From an uncultured Verrucomicrobiae bacterium (GTDB lineage: Bacteria > Verrucomicrobiota > Verrucomicrobiia > Chthoniobacterales > Chthoniobacteraceae): a stretch of DNA of 64,000 nucleotides. Position numbers and translations under genes: made by a program. The notes under the pieces are model-generated. The model ran no database searches. It was not told where the DNA came from and saw only the letters and a program-made list of their open reading frames with translations. Positions 26,989-36,320 of this stretch are shown here, piece after piece (the first letter of the stretch is position 1; each line of letters opens with the position of its first letter). The stretch lies in contig CAVYKI010000004.1 in assembly GCA_963769025.1 (NCBI GenBank), positions 76,984-140,983 on the forward strand, read 5' to 3'.

Positions 26989-27156
26989 TTAAAACGGAGT
27001 GCGCCGGCTGGAAATCTGCGCGGCTCCGGGCGACTGAATCTGGACTCCGACGCTGCCGTGAAGAATATCGTCGTCGTGCGATCCTTGCCGGGCCGCGCAG
27101 CCGGACAGAATGAACGCAAAGCCGATTGCCACGAGGGGAAGCAACCGTTGGCTCAC
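26989..27156 (-). CDS. Small putative lipoprotein
   Basis: GTG start, hydrophobic stretch, lipobox LSGC. Confidence 0.55.
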   Translation of the reverse strand: MSQRLLPLVAIGFAFILSGCAARQGSHDDDILHGSVGVQIQSPGAAQISSRRTPF

Positions 27157-27169
27157 AGCCTTTTCGCGA

Positions 27170-27598
27170 CTAGTTCTTTTTTGCGGTCGGCGCGGGTCCA
27201 CCGCTCTTTTTTGCCGCCTCCCAGCGCGCTTTCATTGCAGCTGCCAGCTTTGCCCTCACTTCGGGAGACATCTTGCGTTTCTTTTTCGCTGGAGCTGCTG
27301 CTGCTTTGGGCTTTTCCGGAGCCGCGACCTTCGCCTTCGCGGCGGCTGGCGCTTTGTCGCCGGCCTTGACCTTCGCCCAACGCTTTTTCTGAGCCGCCCT
27401 GATGTTGGCAATGGCCGTGGGTGACAGCTTGCGTCGCGCGGTTTTGGCGGCCTTGGCAGGCTTGGCGGCGGGTTCTGCGACACGGGATGCTGATTGCGGC
27501 TGGCTGCCGAGAATGGCTGCGAGTTCCTTTTCGAGTGCCGCGATCTGTTCGGCGAGCTCGAGACCGCGCTGCCATTGAGAGAGGGTGGGGATATTCAT
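27170..27598 (-). CDS. Basic histone-like putative DNA-binding protein
   Basis: N-terminal coiled coil, K/A/P-rich linkers, two copies of RK(L/M)SP...(K/A)RW helix. Confidence 0.75.
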   Translation of the reverse strand: MNIPTLSQWQRGLELAEQIAALEKELAAILGSQPQSASRVAEPAAKPAKAAKTARRKLSPTAIANIRAAQKKRWAKVKAGDKAPAAAKAKVAAPEKPKAAAAPAKKKRKMSPEVRAKLAAAMKARWEAAKKSGGPAPTAKKN

Positions 27599-27695
27599 GG
27601 GGCTGACAGGTATTGCCTAACTGAAAAATAGCAAGCGGCGTTGCAAATGCCCGTGCATGGCCTTGCTTGGAGTGCGGCTGTGAAAGGAGGTTGAT

Positions 27696-28454
27696 TCACT
27701 GGGCCGTCCAGCCGCCGTCGATGACCACATCGGTCCCTGTGACGAAACCTGCATCTTCCGAGCACAGGTAAAGCGCGAGCTTCGCGATCTCCTCCGGTTT
27801 GCCCCAGCGGCCGAGCGGGATCTTTGCGAGGAATTGTTCCCGCAGCTCCGCGTTTTGCATTAGCGGTACGTTGATTTCCGTGTCGCACACGCCGGGGCTG
27901 ATACCATTGACGGTGATTTTTTCCCCCGCGAGTTCGAGCGCGAGCGCACGGTTGAATCCGAGCAGTGCCGTCTTGCTGGCTGAATAGGCGGTGCGGCCCG
28001 GCAGGGAGATGTGGGACATCATGGAGGTCATGTTGATGATGCGCCCGTAACCTTGCCCGGTCATCATGGGGACGAATGCGCGGCAGAGCAGAAACACGCT
28101 GGTCAGGTTGGTGTTCAGCACGCTGTTCCACTCGGCGAGTGTGAAGTCGGTGACGGGTTTGCGGATGTTGATCCCGGCGTTGTTAATGAGGATGTGCAAG
28201 TGGGCGCCGATCCGGGAGGCGAATGCATCGTGCACACCGGCGACCTGAGTTTCGTCGGTGACGTCGGCGACGAAGACCTCGGCGTTGCCGCCGTTGCCCC
28301 GAATCTCCGCGGCGACATCATTCAGCTTCGGTCCGTCGCGGGAGACGAGTGCGACGGTCGCGCCAGCCTCGGCGAGGGCGAGCGCCATCGCCTTGCCAAG
28401 GCCCTTGCTGGCTCCGGTGATCAGTGCGGTTTTGCCGTGAAGTGGTCGAGTCAT
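27696..28454 (-). CDS. SDR-family oxidoreductase
   Basis: TGASKGLG, NNAG, YSASK, DGG. Confidence 0.93.
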   Translation of the reverse strand: MTRPLHGKTALITGASKGLGKAMALALAEAGATVALVSRDGPKLNDVAAEIRGNGGNAEVFVADVTDETQVAGVHDAFASRIGAHLHILINNAGINIRKPVTDFTLAEWNSVLNTNLTSVFLLCRAFVPMMTGQGYGRIINMTSMMSHISLPGRTAYSASKTALLGFNRALALELAGEKITVNGISPGVCDTEINVPLMQNAELREQFLAKIPLGRWGKPEEIAKLALYLCSEDAGFVTGTDVVIDGGWTAQ

Positions 28455-28638
28455 GGCCGGACAATACGGAGTGAACCTGCCGACGTGACACAAAAAACAC
28501 GCTGGCCAGCCCGGATGCTGGCGGGCAACGTGCGGCAGTGAACGCGCCGTCGAGACAGTCCCCGCCAAGCCGGACGGTACCGGACCGCTGTGCTCCGGCC
28601 GCTTTCTGCGAGATACTCGACATCGAAAGGAGACAGCG

Positions 28639-29226
28639 GTGTCCGAACTCCTAGTCAGGGATCGCTGGTATGCGCTGATCGTCGCCGGGCCGAGCGGCTC
28701 GGGAAAGAGCGTGGTGGCCGAGCATGTCGGGCGGGAGCTCAGCCTGCCGGTGATTGATGCCGACGATTACCATAGCCGGGAAGCGGTGGAGCTCATGAAG
28801 CGCGGGACGCCGCTTGCGGACGAATATCGCGAGAGTTGGGCGGAACGCATCATCGGCGGGATGATCGCCTGGCGTCGGCGCGGTGAGAGCGTGGTCATTG
28901 CATGCTCGTGCATCCGCCGCCGCACGAGGGATCGTTTTCGCACCTATGTGAACGAGGCGCGAATCGTGGGCGGTCAGGTGGTCATCGCATGGCTGGATGT
29001 ATCGCCGGAGGTGCTCCGGACGCGCCTTCTGCGCCGGGAGGAGGAGCAGACGCACTTCTTCCCTGCGTCGCTGCTTGGCTCTCAGCTCAATGCCGCGCAG
29101 CCCCCGGATCCGCAGAGCGAACCCGGGGTGATACGGATCGCAGTCGGACCGGAGGCGCCCGACGCTGTCGCTCGAAAGGTTTGGGAATCCGTACCGGCAC
29201 TTCATCCATTCGTTGCCCGCGCCTGA
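28639..29226 (+). CDS. Gluconokinase (GntK/IdnK-like)
   Basis: GPSGSGKS, DADDYH, MKRGTPLAD, IACS, HFFPASLLGSQ. Confidence 0.85.
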   Translation: MSELLVRDRWYALIVAGPSGSGKSVVAEHVGRELSLPVIDADDYHSREAVELMKRGTPLADEYRESWAERIIGGMIAWRRRGESVVIACSCIRRRTRDRFRTYVNEARIVGGQVVIAWLDVSPEVLRTRLLRREEEQTHFFPASLLGSQLNAAQPPDPQSEPGVIRIAVGPEAPDAVARKVWESVPALHPFVARA

Positions 29227-29272
29227 CACCGCGGTGGTCAAACGCACGAGGAGGGGCGGATGCCATCAGGAA

Positions 29273-29294
29273 CCGTCTGGATGAGTCCAGACGG
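29273..29294. terminator. Perfect hairpin between convergent genes
   Basis: CCGTCTGGA-TGAG-TCCAGACGG; no U-tract. Confidence 0.35.
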
Positions 29295-29368
29295 ATGCCT
29301 TCACCCACACATGGGGACTGCGACTTCCGGCGCGTCAGAATGTACGGCTGCGGCCGAAGGACTCCGCG

Positions 29369-30043
29369 CTAGCTTGCCAGGCGGTAGTGTCCCGGGCCGA
29401 CCTTCTTGATATCCTTGAAGTTCTTGCCGGTGGTCGAAAACCACACAAACAGGTTGCGGGGGTTCATGCCAAATTGCTTCGCGAGATCACCGACGCGGGC
29501 ACCGTCCTTGCCAGCGGCCTTCAGCGCGTCCTGAATGCCCGCTGACAGCTCACCGCGCTTGGATCCGACGGACTTCAGCGCCTTGGGAGCCGCCTTCGCA
29601 GGCGTCGGGGCCGCAGGCGCCGCGGCGGGCACGGGTCCGACGAGGCGGTAGCGGCCCTTTCCAGCCTTGCGGATCGCGGGAATGGTCTTCCGCGCAAATT
29701 GAAACCAAGAATGAAGGGCTTCGGGCTTTGCGCCAAGTTCCGCCGCAAGGTCCCGCACACGCATGCCGGCTTTTCCGGCCGCGCCCAGCGCTGCGAAGAT
29801 GCGTCCTTTCAATTCACCCCGCGGGGCGCGTCCCGGTGTCACTGCCGGGGCCGCTTTGCCCGCGACCGGCGCGGCTTTTTTCGCGACCGGAGTCGCAGCG
29901 GTCACTCCGCTGTCGGAAAATAGTGCGTTCTTGATGCGTTCCAGGCGGGCCAGCACTTGATCGAGCTTGCCTTGCAAGGCGGCGCGCTCTTTTTCAATGC
30001 TCATTGCTTCTTTGAACAGGTCGATTCGGGATGGTGAGGACAT
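29369..30043 (-). CDS. Putative DNA-binding protein: coiled coil plus tandem winged-helix domains
   Basis: Two homologous domains RGELKGRIFAAL..VRDLAAELG..SWF..GKGRYRL and RGELSAGIQDAL..VGDLAKQFG..VWF..GPGHYRL. Confidence 0.75.
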   Translation of the reverse strand: MSSPSRIDLFKEAMSIEKERAALQGKLDQVLARLERIKNALFSDSGVTAATPVAKKAAPVAGKAAPAVTPGRAPRGELKGRIFAALGAAGKAGMRVRDLAAELGAKPEALHSWFQFARKTIPAIRKAGKGRYRLVGPVPAAAPAAPTPAKAAPKALKSVGSKRGELSAGIQDALKAAGKDGARVGDLAKQFGMNPRNLFVWFSTTGKNFKDIKKVGPGHYRLAS

Positions 30044-30236
30044 AGGGCTGGATGCTTCATCCATACTCCCGATATTCTCAAGTATTATCTTGCTAGCGTC
30101 AGATTGCGGCACGTCTGGTGGCTTGGTGTGCGCGGACGGCGGAGCGGGCTTCCTGCCCGCGGGACAAGTGCCTTCCCGGATGTGGATCACGATTCCTTTG
30201 CAAAAACCTCCGCCAGCGCTATCGTCCCCAGCCTCT

Positions 30237-30809
30237 ATGGAAAAACGAAACTTCAGCAGCCTGATTCTTGCCCTCGTTGCAATCGGCGTGCTCGCTGGGT
30301 GCGCAACAAAACCGCCGCCGCCGCCGCCCACGCCAACCCCTGCCAAACCCGCTCCGCCCTATACCTGGAATGACACCGGCGCCACCGGCGACCCGAGGAT
30401 CGTGGTGAACGTCTCGAGGCAGCGAGCTTACTTCTTCCGCGGGAACGAATGTGTTGGCGACACGCGGTGCAGCACGGGCAAGAAGGGTTTTGCAACGAAG
30501 CTCGGTGCTTATGCCGTGACGCAAAAGAACAAGGACCATGTCTCAAATCTATACGGCAACTTTGTCAACGAAGCGGGAGAGGTCATCCAGCGCGACGTGG
30601 ACATGAGCAAGATGCAGGTTCCGGAAGGCTGTTCGTTCCAAGGTGCGAAGATGCCATACTTCATGCGCTTCACAGGCGGATACGGGCTGCATGCCGGAAA
30701 AGTGCCGAACTACCCTGCGTCGCACGGTTGCGTGCGGCTCCCGCGGGTGATGGCGGAGCGCTTCTTCGTGAATAGCAGGATCGGCACGCCAGTCCTGGTT
30801 GAAGAATAG
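30237..30809 (+). CDS. L,D-transpeptidase (YkuD family) lipoprotein
   Basis: Lipobox LAGC; GLHAG..PASHGCVRL. Confidence 0.92.
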   Translation: MEKRNFSSLILALVAIGVLAGCATKPPPPPPTPTPAKPAPPYTWNDTGATGDPRIVVNVSRQRAYFFRGNECVGDTRCSTGKKGFATKLGAYAVTQKNKDHVSNLYGNFVNEAGEVIQRDVDMSKMQVPEGCSFQGAKMPYFMRFTGGYGLHAGKVPNYPASHGCVRLPRVMAERFFVNSRIGTPVLVEE

Positions 30810-30811
30810 GC

Positions 30812-31208
30812 GGCGCTGGGGGCGGAGTGCCACGTCCTCGCGCCGTGCCGGCTTGGACGGACGCCGCGAGCGGGTGAAGGCCGACGGGCGCGATGCGGCG
30901 GGGCTGTGCCAGCGGCTGTCGCGCTTTGTGAACGGCAACCGCAGGGAACTGGCTGTCATCAGCGTGGAACGTGGCGCGAATCCGCAGCCTGACCGGCACT
31001 CGGTCCGCACGAAGTGCGACGCCATATTCGAGCGGAGCGAGAAAGACTGGCCGCAGGCCAGCCCGGAGGGTGACGCCGGGAGGCGTCATCAAATTGGACC
31101 GCGCCCCGTTCCGCTTCACCCGCCGCATCCGTCATACGGTGCTGTCCGCCCTGCGGCCAGGCTCAACTCAGTTCACCAAACTTCCATCTTCACCACTTTC
31201 ATAGGGGG
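30812..31208 (+). mobile_element. IS110-family remnant (transposase fragment plus probable right-end non-coding region)
   Basis: Translates ALGAECHVLAP then, after a frame change, RRERVKADGRDAAGLCQRLSRFVNGNRRELAVI (KxDxxDA of the DEDD domain); followed by hairpin-rich non-coding DNA. Confidence 0.6.
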
Positions 31209-31220
31209 TGGGCGTTGCGG

Positions 31221-31748
31221 TCATTCGGGATTAAGTGCTGCGATAGCTGCCTCATGCAGCCACGCGCGCTGATAATGCTCGGCGTAGTAAGCGGAAATAT
31301 TGTCGTCGCCGCGATTGAGGTTGCGTCGCTGCGCCTCCTCGATGTCGCAGGTGATGCCCTGCATCTCGACGCCGTTGCCGATAGCGCGCATGGCGTCGAT
31401 GAGTGCCTTGGTGGGCTCGAAGTCAGAGCCGATAAGCTCGGTGACGATGTGCCGTCGCTCGTCGATGGCCTGGCTCGCGATGATCGGTCCGATAACGTCG
31501 AGAAACTCTGCGAAAGGGCCGGGAAAGTCGAAATACTCGCCACGGCTGAGACTGAGAAACACCTCGGCGGCGTCCACGAGAACATAGCCGGACGAAAAGC
31601 GTTGCTTGCGGACGGTGGTCTTGCCGGCGGCGGGGCCGCCCATGAGGATGACAATGCGCGGCTGAGTGCCGTTCGAGAGTGATGAGTCGTCGAAGTAACG
31701 GTCAATCTCGGCACTGATGTCGAACTGGAAGACGCGTTCTTCTGGCAT
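31221..31748 (-). CDS. Zeta-toxin-like P-loop kinase (gene cassette 2)
   Basis: ILMGGPAAGKTT, VLVDAAE, CDIEEAQRRNLNRG; starts just after the R' box GTTAGCC. Confidence 0.7.
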   Translation of the reverse strand: MPEERVFQFDISAEIDRYFDDSSLSNGTQPRIVILMGGPAAGKTTVRKQRFSSGYVLVDAAEVFLSLSRGEYFDFPGPFAEFLDVIGPIIASQAIDERRHIVTELIGSDFEPTKALIDAMRAIGNGVEMQGITCDIEEAQRRNLNRGDDNISAYYAEHYQRAWLHEAAIAALNPE

Positions 31749-31771
31749 GGCTTTCAGGATGCGCGAGCAAC

Positions 31772-31813
31772 GGCTAACGCACCCAAGCTCAGCGACCACG
31801 GAGCGGTTCGCTG
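31772..31813 (-). other. Integron attC site, 3' half (L' and R')
   Basis: Minus strand CAGCGAACCGCTCCGTGGTCGCTGAGCTTGGGTGC-GTTAGCC. Confidence 0.85.
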
Positions 31814-31882
31814 AGTCGCCGTTAATCGTGGGGTGAACATTGCTGCGGAGCGTATCGCTTCGCAGTGCGAAGATCAAATCCC

Positions 31883-33057
31883 ATGAAGACGAAACTCCAA
31901 CCCAAACCACCAACCAAGAACCCGAAGTATTCCGTCTATGCCGCCCTCGATTTGCACAGCGCCCGCAGCGTGCTCGGCGGCATGGACCATGACGGGAACG
32001 AACTCGGCCAGTCCCGGTTCCCGACCGATGCCGAACATCTCACGCAGGCCGTGCGCTCCCTGGGCGGCACCGGCGTGTGCCTGACCATGGAGGCCAGCTC
32101 GCTGACCCGCTGGGCCGCGGGGCTGGTGCGGCCACTCGTCGAGCGGCTCGTCATCTGCGAGCCGCGGCGCAACCGGCTCATCGCCGAGGACCCGAACAAG
32201 AATGACGGGCAGGACGTCACCAACCTGTGCTTGCTTCTGCGCATCAACCGGCTCAAGGAAGTCTGGATGGGCGACGACCGCCAGCGCCAGATCCACCGCG
32301 AACTGGTCTATGAACTCCTGAACTGGCGCGACGCCCAGCGCGAACTCAAGGCGCTGCATCAAAGCCCGCTACCGGCAGTGGGGCGTGCTGCGCGTGGAGG
32401 GCACCGGCGTCTTTTCGCGCACGCAACGCGAGCGTTATCTCAGCCAGCTCCCCGGCGAGGAGGAAAGGAGGATGCTGCTGCGCGTCTATGCCCAGCACGA
32501 CCACGCCATCGACCAATGGAAGAACACCCTGCGCGAAGTGCTGCCGCGTGGGCCGCCAGTTCTGGGAGGTGGGCGAGTTCAAAAAGATCCCCGGCATCGG
32601 CATCATCGGCGCCCACGTCTTCAGCGCCATCATCGAGGACCCGGCCCGCTTTGCCACCCGGCAGAAGCTCATGAAGTATGCGCGGCTGGCGATCACCGGT
32701 CGCAGCAGCGACGGCAAGCCGCTGGGCTACGAACGGCTCGAACGGCGCGGCCACCGCGAACTCAAGACGCTGAGCTATCACGCCTGGCGCACCGCCTGCC
32801 GCAGCACCACGCGCGACAACGCCGTGCAGCGCTTCTACCGCGCCAGCCTCGAGCGCACCCACGACGTGCGCCACGCCCGGCTCAACACCCAGCGCAAGAT
32901 CCTCGCCGCCATGTGGCGCATGTGGCTCAAACGCGAGGCATGGAAGCCCGAACTCTTTTTCACAGCCACCGACCCGGACGCGACCGCGACCGGGCGAAGC
33001 CAGCCTGAGAACGCCGGCCCGCGTAAAGAGGCACCGCCTCACGCGGCTCAGGGTTGA
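31883..33057 (+). CDS. IS110-family transposase/recombinase (two frameshifts, near 32350 and 32545)
   Basis: DEDD domain ALDLH..MEASS..KNDGQD; Tnp20 domain IPGIG..F..LAITGRSSDGK..GHRELK. Confidence 0.9.
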
Positions 33058-33340
33058 CGACCCCGGCGTCCGCAGCGCAGCGGACTGGGAAAACGCCGGC
33101 CGCACACACCCGGCCATGCGCTTGGGCGGTCTCGATTCAAGGGGGGAACTGCCCCCGCGGGCCCAGCCCCGATTCGCATGAATGGTGCGGCCGGCGACAT
33201 TTCCGCCAGTTCCCCAAGGATGACCCTGGGCGGCCAAGTCAGCAAGTCAGCAAGCTAATAAGCTGACGAGTTAGCAAGTGAGCACAAAGGCCAGCTTCCA
33301 AAGCCTGCATGGAACCCCGACACGTCATCGCAGTCCGCCG
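33058..33340 (+). ncRNA. Candidate bridge/seekRNA in IS right end
   Basis: 12-bp perfect stem 33094-33105/33185-33196; second domain closed by GATGAC/GTCATC; short matches to the donor end and to the attC target. Confidence 0.6.
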
Positions 33341-33493
33341 TCCCGCCGCAGACGCCCGTCCCGCCAGCACCCCAAAGGCACTCCGCCCATCACATCGCCC
33401 GGACTCCGGACGACAAACCCCGATAGTCATCAAAGAAAAATGACGCCACTAACGGGGCGCGTCCCCCCATGCTTTTATGACTTGATTAAAAGC

Positions 33494-33512
33494 CTGCAGC
33501 GCATGGTTCGGC
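33494..33512 (-). other. Integron attC site, 5' half (R'' and L'')
   Basis: Minus strand GCCGAAC-CATGC-GCTGCAG, just downstream of the cassette 1 stop. Confidence 0.85.
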
Positions 33513-33546
33513 GTTGCGGTCACTTGGGATTTTTGCGTCGCGTCGC

Positions 33547-33873
33547 TCACGGAACAATGCGCAATCTCGCGATTTTGCCGTCTCGAAGTGTGAAGGTGTA
33601 GTGAAGCGGAATCGGACTTCCGGGAAAATTGCCGCTGACGGTGGCGGTAACGACCGTATCGTTACCCGCATGTGACAGGTCGGTTACTTTGGCAATTGGT
33701 TTGGCTTCCGCAGTGGCGCGTTCAATCCATTCTTTGATGGCGGTGCCGCGATGATCCTTTGATTCATCGGTGACGTGGGCATCGGCGGTGAACAGCGAGA
33801 GGAAATCTGCAAACTCTCGTGTGTTGGTGGCGTGGAAGAAGGCAGCGATAACCGGTGGGAGTAATACGTTCAT
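33547..33873 (-). CDS. SnoaL-like/NTF2-family protein (gene cassette 1)
   Basis: LPPVIAAFF..FTADAHVTDE..VSGNFPGSPIPLHYTFTLRDGKIARL; bounded by GTTAGGC and attC. Confidence 0.88.
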   Translation of the reverse strand: MNVLLPPVIAAFFHATNTREFADFLSLFTADAHVTDESKDHRGTAIKEWIERATAEAKPIAKVTDLSHAGNDTVVTATVSGNFPGSPIPLHYTFTLRDGKIARLRIVP

Positions 33874-33938
33874 GGCTTTCTTGTGGATGTTAGTGTCGAG
33901 CGAATTCTTGTTCGTTCTGTGGTGGAAGCGCGAGCATC

Positions 33939-33975
33939 GCCTAACATTTTGATTGAGCCGCAGGGGTGCGGCATA
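33939..33975 (-). other. attI-like integron recombination site
   Basis: Minus strand ..GCGGCTCAATCAAAAT-GTTAGGC: GTTRRRY core after an A-rich tract with no attC-type hairpin partner. Confidence 0.55.
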
Positions 33976-34313
33976 TCCACGCGATCTAAATGCGGCATTT
34001 GCGGAGTGGAGCGGGGGCGGTTTACTCGGGCAAGCGGAAGTTTTTCCGGCTGCTGGAGGCCGTCGGCGCGGGGTGGAAGGGTCGTCGCGCTCGGCTCGTT
34101 CGGTGTGCTTGTTTCGATCGTGCAGGTTAATCCGGCCCGCACGCCCGACACCGTCCGCGAAACTGACGCGGGCTCATTGGTCGGGTTTCCGGGAGCGTGT
34201 TTGGATTGGGGTTTGCGTGATTTTCGGAACGTCTGATTCCACCGGCTCCCGGCCGGCGCATGGGCGCGCTTTTTTTACTCGCACCGGGAGGGCGAAGCGT
34301 TTCGAGTCGGAGC

Positions 34314-36320
<2,007 letters not shown>

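Follow-up and report, generated by a model that had tools for sequence, protein, structure and literature searches.

The window analysed here, a stretch of 64 kb, carries an insertion sequence that splits what looks like an integron attC site. What is this element, and is attC its regular target? A first-pass annotation had read the locus as an IS1111-group element inserted precisely inside attC. The element and the two parts of the site are laid out as follows.

31814..33496, plus strand: insertion sequence, 1683 bp; its ends match those of relatives L001-L021
31814..31882, plus strand: non-coding left end, 69 nt; a 7-nt extension, then the subterminal repeat
31883..33057, plus strand: IS110-superfamily (DEDD) transposase pseudogene in three frames (PF02371, NF033542, tblastn frames)
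33058..33496, plus strand: long non-coding right end, 439 nt, 3' of the transposase frames
33481..33496, plus strand: right tip; subterminal repeat, 3-nt extension and right CTG
31772..31813, minus strand: larger part of the attC-like site (rejoined sequence; covariance model R1)
33497..33512, minus strand: smaller part of the attC-like site (rejoined sequence; nhmmer on the excised window)

The trinucleotide CTG occurs at 31811-31813 (left junction) and at 33494-33496 (right junction), exactly where the first-pass annotation had put it. Because CTG is common to both junctions, the element boundaries can be moved by up to 3 nt, and the lengths of the terminal extensions shift with this choice by as much. 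The right end could be aligned with the right ends of 12 other elements. No second copy of the element was found in the 64-kb window.

The IS1111 group is described in sections of PMC11187229 and PMC11208160 as having a short left end, a long non-coding region 3' of the transposase, and subterminal inverted repeats that are 11–13 bp long and near-perfect, or 7–17 bp long. The window's element has this layout (69 nt on the left versus 439 nt on the right, the long tail having been noted in the first pass) and the 7-bp left and 3-bp right extensions of the group when CTG is counted as a shared core outside the element. The imperfect repeats proposed earlier, two 10-mers lying 7 nt and 3 nt inside the ends, are real at those positions under the same provision. 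They are weak: 7 of 10 positions match (counted by eye), and the exact core inside them is only 6 bp (31822-31827 versus 33484-33489), beginning 8 nt into the left end and stopping 7 nt before the right end, CTG included. The best exact repeat was 5–6 bp in 8 of 9 complete elements, short of the lengths described for IS1111; in the ninth, L003, it was 7 bp and at another place. Thus, membership in the IS1111 group proper is suggested by the layout and finds no support in repeat length.

Joining 31772-31813 to 33497-33512 reproduced, letter for letter, the 58-nt minus-strand string of the first-pass annotation. In the sense of the cassettes, the smaller part supplies the R'' box, a 5-nt spacer and the beginning of the inner left arm; the larger part supplies the rest of that arm, the loop, the right arm, the spacer and the R' box, and its final three bases (31811-31813) are the left CTG. 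When the rejoined site was laid on the consensus pairing of 48 sites from cassette arrays (see below), 14 of 15 core pairs formed. A T and a C stayed unpaired, in register with the two unpaired positions of the array sites; the arms do pair apart from two extrahelical bases, as had been claimed. The attC box consensus is RYYYAAC/GTTRRRY, from which each R box of the window's site differs at one position. The structural features listed for attC in sections of PMC4889954 (R''/R' boxes with AAC/GTT triplets, L boxes, unpaired spacers, extrahelical bases and a variable middle) are all present in the rejoined site.

We built a covariance model, R1, from the 48 array sites. In the window, R1 matched 31772-31828 at the left junction (23.8 bits, E 1.3e-4), the sole match below E 0.8. 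With the element excised in silico, a check proposed with the first-pass annotation, the E-value of the HMM match spanning the junction fell from 7 to 0.0022 (nhmmer, 14.4 bits). The rejoined 58-mer folded no better than its dinucleotide shuffles (z +0.43 and −0.62; 324 of 500 and 121 of 500 shuffles folded at least as well), and folding energy is therefore no evidence for the site. The window holds this one attC-like site and no other. A crude scan for AAC...GTT hairpins returned 40 candidates, on inspection mostly in coding sequence and forming no array, and an inverted-repeat search of 26–35 kb found no further site. No empty-site allele of the locus was found.

The site lies between two genes on the minus strand:

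33547..33873, minus strand: SnoaL-like ORF (PF12680, E 8.1e-10); its stop is 34 nt before the attC-like site
31221..31748, minus strand: P-loop kinase ORF, zeta-toxin/CPT-like (PF06414, E 7.9e-7; PF07931, E 4.7e-6)

The SnoaL-like ORF is the cassette-like gene that owns the interrupted site, and the P-loop kinase ORF, which starts 23 nt after the site, is the next one. Homologues of the window's cassette-like genes were absent from the related loci except for one SDR (34%). No integrase or Phage_integrase match was found among 102 ORFs of at least 60 aa (23–39 kb) and 39 long ORFs elsewhere in the window, which thus shows neither a nearby integrase nor the two or more attC sites of an integron or CALIN. 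A MoxR ATPase encoded in the window is 83–87% identical to proteins named Chthoniobacteraceae or Chthoniobacter, in agreement with the Verrucomicrobiota host suspected at first pass.

We then looked at the relatives of the element. Among 491 candidate proteins, 354 were related at E ≤ 1e-3, the closest at 87–95% identity. In species-representative genomes, the relatives occupy 21 loci, 18 of them titled Verrucomicrobiota, and the best match on these contigs is 68% identical; the left-end and right-end motifs are kept in relatives of 62–68% protein identity. The left junction reads CTG in 18 of 19 cases. The right tip ends in CTG in 13 of 16 elements and in CTT in the other three, and a GTT follows 9–11 nt past the junction in 14 of 15 right flanks. 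Uninterrupted array sites contain the core once. No target duplication is thus seen, and a short core is common to donor and target, as in the IS110 superfamily.

R1 found 82 plus-strand sites in 16 of the 21 loci, all in one orientation, with attC-type clusters of 22 matches in L013 and 16 in L004; its one minus-strand match mirrors a plus-strand match. All 82 distinct matches share the orientation of the transposase. Applied to 19 left junctions, the model matched 14 at E ≤ 0.01 and 2 weakly, 1 was untestable, and 2 (L001 and L015 (13132)) had no attC-type site. Position and orientation are fixed across these junctions, as in the attC-targeting subgroup. The view that the element is attC-specific thus gains support from its relatives; the expectation that other copies would have the same ends and attC-type flanks was borne out at most left junctions.

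The arrays themselves are organised like cassette arrays. Their repeats, 95–175 nt long, have AAC...GTT ends, unpaired spacers, two unpaired bases and a variable middle. The 48 array sites fold into an R box, spacers, a 3-bp L box, an unpaired base, 6 bp, a second unpaired base and a stem, with compensatory changes in 13 of 20 predicted pairs. Between the repeats lie single small ORFs, every one on one strand, and those with Pfam matches are on the strand opposite to the transposase. A search of 98 ORFs (230 aa or longer) in L003-L009, L011-L017 and L019-L021, with L018 left out, turned up no integrase, and because of this we call the arrays attC on structure and organisation alone.

The transposase gene of the window's copy is broken by two frameshifts into three frames (31883-32356, 32358-32540 and 32536-33057), a split that had escaped the first-pass annotation. 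Both frameshifts are single-base insertions in similar 5-nt contexts. PF02371 matched the C-terminal piece (32488-33054, E 1.4e-12). NCBIfam model NF033542 matched relatives along its full length (positions 1–343), with scores of 84–90 bits against a cutoff of 140, and the window's two pieces cover positions 1–123 and 222–341. Residues D23, E70, D108 and D111, which we take to be the DEDD residues, are invariant across 34 relatives. These matches place the protein in the IS110 superfamily, whose transposases have an N-terminal DEDD/RuvC-like and a C-terminal IS116/IS110/IS902 domain. Intact relatives are 376–379 aa long and read through without a frameshift. Given the two frameshifts and a lineage-specific insertion in loop 2 of the tail (see below) that is lacking in L001-L003, the window's copy is probably inactive on its own.

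The non-coding tail contains a conserved two-loop module. One of its segments is complementary to the right flank, another repeats the left flank, and a third repeats the right tip of the element itself. In the window the module comprises:

33094..33196, plus strand: loop 1, which would bind the target in a seekRNA/bridge RNA (RNA fold, duplex tests)
33114..33122, plus strand: 5' guide segment, 9 nt, exact complement of the right flank 33498-33506
33172..33180, plus strand: 3' guide segment, copying the left flank up to the junction (5 nt, one extra base, TG)
33300..33307, plus strand: loop 2 segment, proposed donor guide, identical to the element's own right tip 33489-33496

Loop 1 is closed by a 12-bp outer stem (33094-33105 with 33185-33196) that encloses both guide segments and an inner hairpin, and it folds better than all of 200 shuffles (z −3.36). 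Loop 2 of the window folds no better than shuffles (z −0.38). The 5' guide segment occurs at the same position in 17 other elements. In all 18 elements the guide positions lie inside a stem-bounded loop with an outer stem of 7–12 pairs, and the right-flank complement precedes the left-flank copy, which is the guide order of IS1111-type elements at the sequence level; the outer-stem energy was reached by at most 2 of 200 shuffles in 11 of the 18. RNAalifold on MAFFT alignments of the module recovered 3 pairs only, because the stems are out of register, and we assessed them by per-sequence folds and duplex tests. Rfam, run at gathering thresholds on the window and in E-value mode on 31000-34500, returned a tRNA and four chance-level matches, and no bridge or seek RNA family. 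Exact matching and inspection by eye revealed no consistent guide in the left end.

Do the segments follow their flanks? In the window alone, the 9-nt complement is not significant, being reached by 171 of 2000 shuffles. In L001, both guides have changed in step with its own flanks. When own and swapped flanks were compared in 10 elements, own flanks fitted better (5' guide, p 0.0013; 3' guide, p 0.009), although these significances are inflated because the 10 elements are related. The match is imperfect in L004b, L007, L010 and L013, where exact runs reach no more than 5 nt for the 5' guide and 3–6 nt for the 3' guide. The loop 2 segment equals the right-tip 8-mer in 12 of 15 elements and differs at the last base only in the other three, and tip and segment vary together across elements. 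As predicted from sequence, the module is a seekRNA/bridge-RNA arrangement, and the first-pass suggestion that target and donor can be read from one locus holds at this level.

The elements with a CTT tip indicate where the strands may be exchanged. L014 and L015 have CTG at the left junction, CTT at the right, and CTG in their own loop 2 segment; L016 has the same CTT tip and CTG loop 2 reading, its left junction lying off the contig. The pattern in L014 and L015 is what a CTG donor and a CTT target would give if they recombined after CT, and it does not suit a duplication.

Taken together, these results lead us to regard the window's element, with good confidence, as a decayed copy of an RNA-guided IS110-superfamily element of IS1111-type layout, from a lineage that lives in the attC sites of Verrucomicrobial cassette arrays. 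Three other readings of the locus bear on its target and its state. CTG might be a 3-bp target-site duplication of the ordinary kind, left by staggered cuts, with the tail matching by chance; CTG does stand on both sides of the element, and the window's 9-nt match carries no significance by itself. This reading is scarcely credible when the two CTT-tip elements with both junctions (L014 and L015; L016 shows the right one only) have CTG at one side and CTT at the other, the loop 2 segment itself includes the tip plus CTG, the guide positions are conserved and co-vary, and no duplication is reported for this element family in sections of PMC11187229. Alternatively, the target could be another repeated extragenic palindrome, making the element a REP-type targeter like ISPa11 or IS621 with no integron attC involved. 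The first unpaired base of attC on the folding strand is usually G; it is C here, and this would suit such a target, as would the single site in the window, the lack of an integrase in the window and the stretches of loci examined, and a rejoined hairpin no more stable than shuffles. We consider it very unlikely all the same: single small one-strand ORFs separate the array repeats, compensatory changes support their pairing, their length, AAC...GTT ends and two unpaired bases match the attC description in sections of PMC4889954, and according to the same paper there are integrons in Verrucomicrobia, and many attC clusters have no integrase. That the copy is intact and active, the frameshifts being assembly errors or read through, is unlikely. 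The like context of the two single-base insertions speaks for it, and an adjoining FAD oxidoreductase gene (34260-36320) is likewise split, into at least three frames, which could point to assembly errors confined to this region, if it is repeated or was sequenced at low coverage. Against it, long genes elsewhere in the window are unbroken (891, 818, 876 and 1000 aa, for example), the relatives need no frameshift to be read, and loop 2 has the insertion lacking in L001-L003.

A fourth possibility, to which we give nearly an even chance, is that the lineage is a separate branch of the IS110 superfamily, outside the IS1111 group and its attC subgroup, that acquired layout and target independently. 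By BLASTP, a full-length relative aligned with an IS5075 transposase over 79 residues only (28% identity, E 2e-4). By tblastn against 72,556 plasmids it matched 39 records, every one below 60% identity (22–30% among the 30 matches listed), and at E ≤ 1e-5 it matched none of the thousands of plasmid copies of IS5075/IS4321, whereas these copies were matched when another IS110-type transposase of the arrays served as query; plasmid searches with this second transposase and with that of IS5075 were saturated by IS5075/IS4321. The very short inverted repeats and the merely generic names of the nearest other clusters also argue for a separate branch. On the other side, the layout, the 7-nt and 3-nt extensions, the guide order, the orientation and the choice of attC end all conform to the IS1111-attC pattern. 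The lineage is apparently distant, new and, as the first pass had suspected, uncatalogued and Verrucomicrobial; its mechanism, as far as sequence can tell, is already known.

The IS1111-attC group is mainly Proteobacterial. Here the host is Verrucomicrobiota, the transposase very divergent and the exact repeats 5–6 bp. ISPa21, ISPst6, ISKpn4 and ISPa25 belong to this group (Tetu & Holmes 2008 and Post & Hall 2009, via PMC3001079 and PMC11187229), whose members, as sections of PMC3001079 describe them, run antisense to the cassettes and sit close to the 5' end of attC. Our elements share with this group one fixed place near the 5' (ORF-proximal) end of attC, antisense orientation, a long non-coding region after the transposase, RNA segments (predicted in our elements) matching both target strands, and the lack of a duplication. 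Group IIC-attC introns are described there too as homing to attC near its 5' end, antisense to cassettes; they are retroelements with a ribozyme and no DEDD transposase.

Other IS110-type systems share the RNA guide. As treated in sections of PMC11187229, ISEc11 and ISXne4 with their seekRNA also have a downstream non-coding region with a top-strand complement followed by a bottom-strand match, are naturally retargeted by changed segments, and form a junction promoter from joined ends; their target is short and linear, whereas ours is a structured attC, known here from its sequence. IS5075/IS4321, of the IS1111 family, agree in superfamily and in the layout described for them, and their target is the inverted repeats of Tn21-type transposons rather than attC. 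The core of IS621 is CT, the core that L014 and L015 (both junctions) and L016 (right junction) indicate here. The IS621 bridge RNA, in the account of sections of PMC11208160, likewise has two stem-bounded internal loops for target and donor; it is encoded upstream of the gene, in the left end, whereas ours would lie in the right end.

What the loci display directly is anatomy, conserved ends, an attC-type target in the relatives, and guide-like segments with their co-variation. From these, and by analogy with ISKpn4, ISPst6, ISEc11 and IS621, we infer an RNA, a circle, a promoter and whatever activity the lineage has. The element would leave its donor as a circle, whose joined ends may form a promoter: the right tip would bring a −35-like hexamer (the proposed −35 half) and the left end a −10-like one (the proposed −10 half), 16 nt apart. 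This junction promoter would yield transcripts for the transposase and for the right-end RNA. One internal loop of the RNA would pair with both strands of the inner-arm/spacer region of attC, and the second with the element's own right tip. The transposase would then swap strands at the common CT(G) core, so that no target is duplicated. The element lies in the ORF-proximal (R''/L'') half of attC, adjoining one of the two unpaired bases, with its transposase gene directed against the cassettes.

To the covariance model, the attC arm together with the first ~15 nt of the element makes a complete attC, with full-length alignments at 14 of 19 left junctions. Conceivably, the left end mimics the displaced attC half, the hybrid stays an integrase substrate, and the element rides along with its cassette; we think this quite unlikely. 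If integrase did accept the hybrid site, the lineage could spread by cassette exchange in addition to its own RNA-guided recombination.

The window's copy is probably a dead relic and of little importance in itself. For elements of IS1111 type that target attC, and for their guide RNAs, a handful of examples have been known, clinical and Proteobacterial ones, and this locus leads to a large environmental lineage acting likewise in the cassette arrays of Verrucomicrobia, with a transposase that pairwise searches barely tie to the named IS1111 member IS5075. From the lineage's many naturally occurring guides and targets, some of them mismatched, the pairing rules of IS1111-type RNA could be derived. 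Three of its natural insertions end in CTT on the right and locate the crossover; both junctions are available for two of these. In soil Verrucomicrobiota, cassette arrays apparently also serve at least two distinct IS110-type lineages as landing pads.

We searched for relatives of the inserted element (31814-33496, plus strand) by indexing words of its N-terminal 159 transposase residues. Of 491 candidates, 354 proteins reached E <= 1e-3; most are 361-392 aa long and encoded on short metagenome contigs. The best full-length relatives are 87-93% identical, and both frameshift sites of the window gene are read through in them. The window gene itself is disrupted, in three different frames, a feature that the first-pass annotation had overlooked:

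31883-32356, plus strand, transposase piece 1, aligning with residues 1-158 of intact relatives
32358-32540, plus strand, transposase piece 2, aligning with residues 159 to about 219
32536-33057, plus strand, transposase piece 3, aligning with the remaining C-terminal residues

The window copy of the element is a relic, and the window contains no second copy. A nearby gene for a FAD-dependent oxidoreductase (34260-36320, plus strand; domains PF12831 and Golvesin_C) falls into three ORFs. Its frame changes at least three times, near 34605, 34720 and 35160-35200, which makes it either a pseudogene or the product of local assembly error. This has a bearing on the reality of the transposase frameshifts.

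A single scan across species-representative genomes, with an alignment of 34 relatives as query, yielded 21 loci (L001-L021) at 52-68% protein identity, 18 of which are titled as Verrucomicrobiota lineages. The elements in these loci keep both ends: the left end starts right after CTG (18 of 19 junctions), and the right tip ends in CTG in 13 of 16 cases and in CTT in three. The L010 copy (junctions 323 and 1869) shows CGG rather than CTG on the left, and its right flank begins with T rather than C; either the element entered an off-consensus site or a mutation changed the site afterwards. The 2712-bp L002 contig carries a right tip at 1-110 and, after 1133 bp, another copy that runs off the end (1244-2712), reflecting either two copies flanking one cassette or an assembly wrapped round a repeat.

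The flanking DNA of the relatives is non-random. A box ending in TAAC lies about 50-110 nt upstream of the left junction, and GTT lies 9-11 nt past the right junction in 14 of 15 cases. This two-part site recurs many times, uninterrupted, in the same loci. Alignment of 48 uninterrupted sites (95-137 nt) gives a single layout: the R box, spacers (unpaired, about 8 and 5 nt), the L box (3 bp), one unpaired base, a 6-bp helix, an unpaired T and finally a stem and the variable middle. Compensatory changes occur in 13 of 20 predicted pairs, and the layout is the attC plan of PMC4889954. A covariance model built from the 48 sites (R1) found 82 plus-strand matches at E <= 0.01 in 16 of the 21 loci, with up to 22 in one locus (L013) and 16 in another (L004) and single small ORFs between them; the one minus-strand match mirrors a plus-strand match. 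Array ORFs with Pfam matches run opposite to the transposase, and only IS110-type transposases share its strand. Thus, these are cassette arrays in which every copy of the element family has the same orientation, antisense with respect to the cassettes.

The claim that the element targets attC is borne out by the flanks of other copies: R1 matches 14 of 19 left junctions at E <= 0.01, the window included. Two more are weak (E 0.011 and 0.027), one has too little flank for testing, and R1 gave no match at the left junctions of L001 and L015 (13132). At the matching left junctions (window 31772-31828, L021:9830-9951, L019:9821-9943, L013:9847-9969 and 10 more), the R1 alignment is full-length, without truncation. 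The model places about the first 15 nt of the element where the attC end is missing, so the left end resembles the attC half that it displaces. R1 found no such match at right junctions, and a sequence-only HMM gave this resemblance no support.

In the window, CTG is indeed present at both junctions (31811-31813 and 33494-33496), and joining 31772-31813 to 33497-33512 gives exactly the 58-nt minus-strand string that had been proposed as the original site. Its arms had been described as paired apart from two extrahelical bases; set against the consensus of the 48 array sites, the rejoined site makes 14 of 15 core pairs, and the unpaired bases, one T and one C, keep the register of that family. 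The folding energy of the rejoined 58-mer is not better than that of its dinucleotide shuffles (z +0.43 and -0.62), so hairpin stability does not count as evidence. With filters off, the sole R1 match in the window below E 0.8 was 31772-31828 (23.8 bits, E 1.3e-4). After in-silico excision, an HMM of the 48 sites matched across the junction (14.4 bits, E 0.0022), versus just E 7 on the intact window. The side bearing the unpaired bases marks the folding 'bottom' strand of attC, and we assigned that strand from this side and from the computed ORF orientation. Read in the cassette direction, the insertion point falls next to the first unpaired base, within the ORF-proximal half of the attC. The overall reading of the locus as a precise insertion of an IS1111-type element in an attC is supported, and the finding is real.

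Two ORFs flank the interrupted site with cassette-like spacing:

33547-33873, minus strand, SnoaL-like ORF, stop 34 nt before the attC-like site
31221-31748, minus strand, zeta-toxin/CPT-like P-loop kinase ORF, start 23 nt after it

R1 found no further attC-type site in the window, and no tyrosine recombinase was found among the window ORFs scanned; the locus is neither an integron nor a CALIN under the IntegronFinder definitions. The minus strand carries one 13-nt string twice: at 31211-31223, where it begins at the kinase-like ORF's stop codon, and at 33510-33522, where it overlaps the R'' box of the interrupted site by the box's first 3 nt. Allowing up to 1 mismatch, 0.35 chance matches are expected, and 2 were reached in 2 of 100 shuffles. 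The string could be what is left of another attC, now decayed, behind the kinase-like ORF, where the covariance model gave no match. The stretch 27000-34200 has a lower G+C (0.59-0.61 versus about 0.65) and carries small ORFs in mixed orientation (SDR, AAA_33 kinase, YkuD transpeptidase, kinase-like and SnoaL-like); it resembles a small island with the interrupted site inside it. The remaining window is chromosomal housekeeping (SecDF, MurJ, PurK, Sua5), and one window protein, a MoxR ATPase, shares 83-87% identity with proteins named Chthoniobacteraceae or Chthoniobacter, which supports the Verrucomicrobiota host that had been suggested.

The three CTT right ends locate the crossover. They belong to L014, L015 and L016; the left junction is CTG in L014 and L015 and off the contig in L016, and the segments of all three that would specify the donor (loop 2, below) read CTG. 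A CTG donor and a CTT target exchanging just after CT account exactly for the L014 and L015 junctions. Target duplication as the source of the two CTG copies is incompatible with a CTG left and a CTT right junction. Thus, donor and target share CT as the core, and in most of them the next base is G. When the ends are joined, TTGATT of the right tip stands 16 nt upstream of GTTAAT or ATTAAT of the left end in 9 of 9 complete elements, a putative junction promoter like that of ISEc11.

A conserved core can be aligned among the non-coding right ends of 13 elements, and 18 elements share a module of two proposed loops resembling a seekRNA or bridge RNA, loop 1 for the target and loop 2 for the donor. 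The outer stem of loop 1 has 7-12 pairs in all 18 (in the window, plus strand, 33094-33105 with 33185-33196). Its energy was reached by at most 2 of 200 shuffles in 11 of the 18, and its sequence varies between subgroups with changes matched on both sides; the window region folds with z -3.36. The 5' side of loop 1 is complementary to the right flank: window 33114-33122 pairs with 33498-33506 (9 nt), and in L001, 11 nt pair with that locus's own, different flank. The 3' side repeats the end of the left flank, as 5 nt and TG separated by one extra base, and in L001 also changes in step with the flank. Own flanks matched better than swapped ones in the 10 elements with both flanks known (p 0.0013 and 0.009, values that are generous because these elements are related); in four elements the matches span just 3-6 nt. 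The 9-nt window match by itself was reached by 171 of 2000 shuffles, and its weight lies in position and co-variation, not length. On its 3' side, loop 2 repeats the right tip of the element itself (window 33300-33307); the match to the tip 8-mer is complete in 12 of 15 elements and fails only at the last base in three. No guide for the left end was found, and window loop 2 folds no better than chance. It carries an insertion with short direct repeats (33226-33290, plus strand) that is absent from its nearest relatives, L001-L003. The guide order is the same as in IS1111-type seekRNAs, for which PMC11187229 gives the top-strand complement first and the bottom-strand match second.

A different IS110-type element inhabits the same cassette arrays:

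L004:6576-8250 and L004:10890-12560, second element, two copies 98.7% identical over 1638 nt
L021:12403-13655, second element
L015:6828-7853, transposase of the second-element type

In the three copies with junctions read, it directly precedes the attC GTTAG box, about 9-10 nt from the site of the first family and in the same orientation. Its 376-aa transposase scores 192.9 bits on NCBIfam NF033542 ('IS110 family RNA-guided transposase'), above the cutoff, and finds IS5075/IS4321 in searches at 25% identity, whereas the transposase of the first family does not find them.

For the first family, both window pieces and full-length relatives align to NF033542 in an alignment that spans the whole model but scores 84-90 bits, under the cutoff of 140, and the C-terminal piece matches PF02371 (E 1.4e-12). 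A short left and a long right end define the IS1111-type layout (PMC11187229, PMC11208160), and the element has it as claimed, with 69 nt ahead of the start codon versus a non-coding right end of 439 nt. Group membership is less certain than layout. The reported subterminal inverted repeats exist but are short, with an exact core of just 6 bp (31822-31827 versus 33484-33489); exact repeats measure 5-6 bp, whereas PMC11187229 and PMC11208160 give 11-13 or 7-17 bp for IS1111. Just 79 residues of a full-length relative align with an IS5075 transposase (28% identity). In a tblastn search of 72,556 plasmids, this relative found 39 records, all below 60% identity (22-30% among the 30 matches listed); IS5075/IS4321, with thousands of copies, were absent from that search, whereas the second array transposase did find them. 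Neighbouring protein clusters bear generic names only. Within the limited literature examined, we found no report of IS1111-attC-type elements in Verrucomicrobiota. The family resembles IS1111-attC elements in layout, orientation, the attC end targeted, guide order and the lack of duplication; the kind of element is already known, and the lineage appears to be new.
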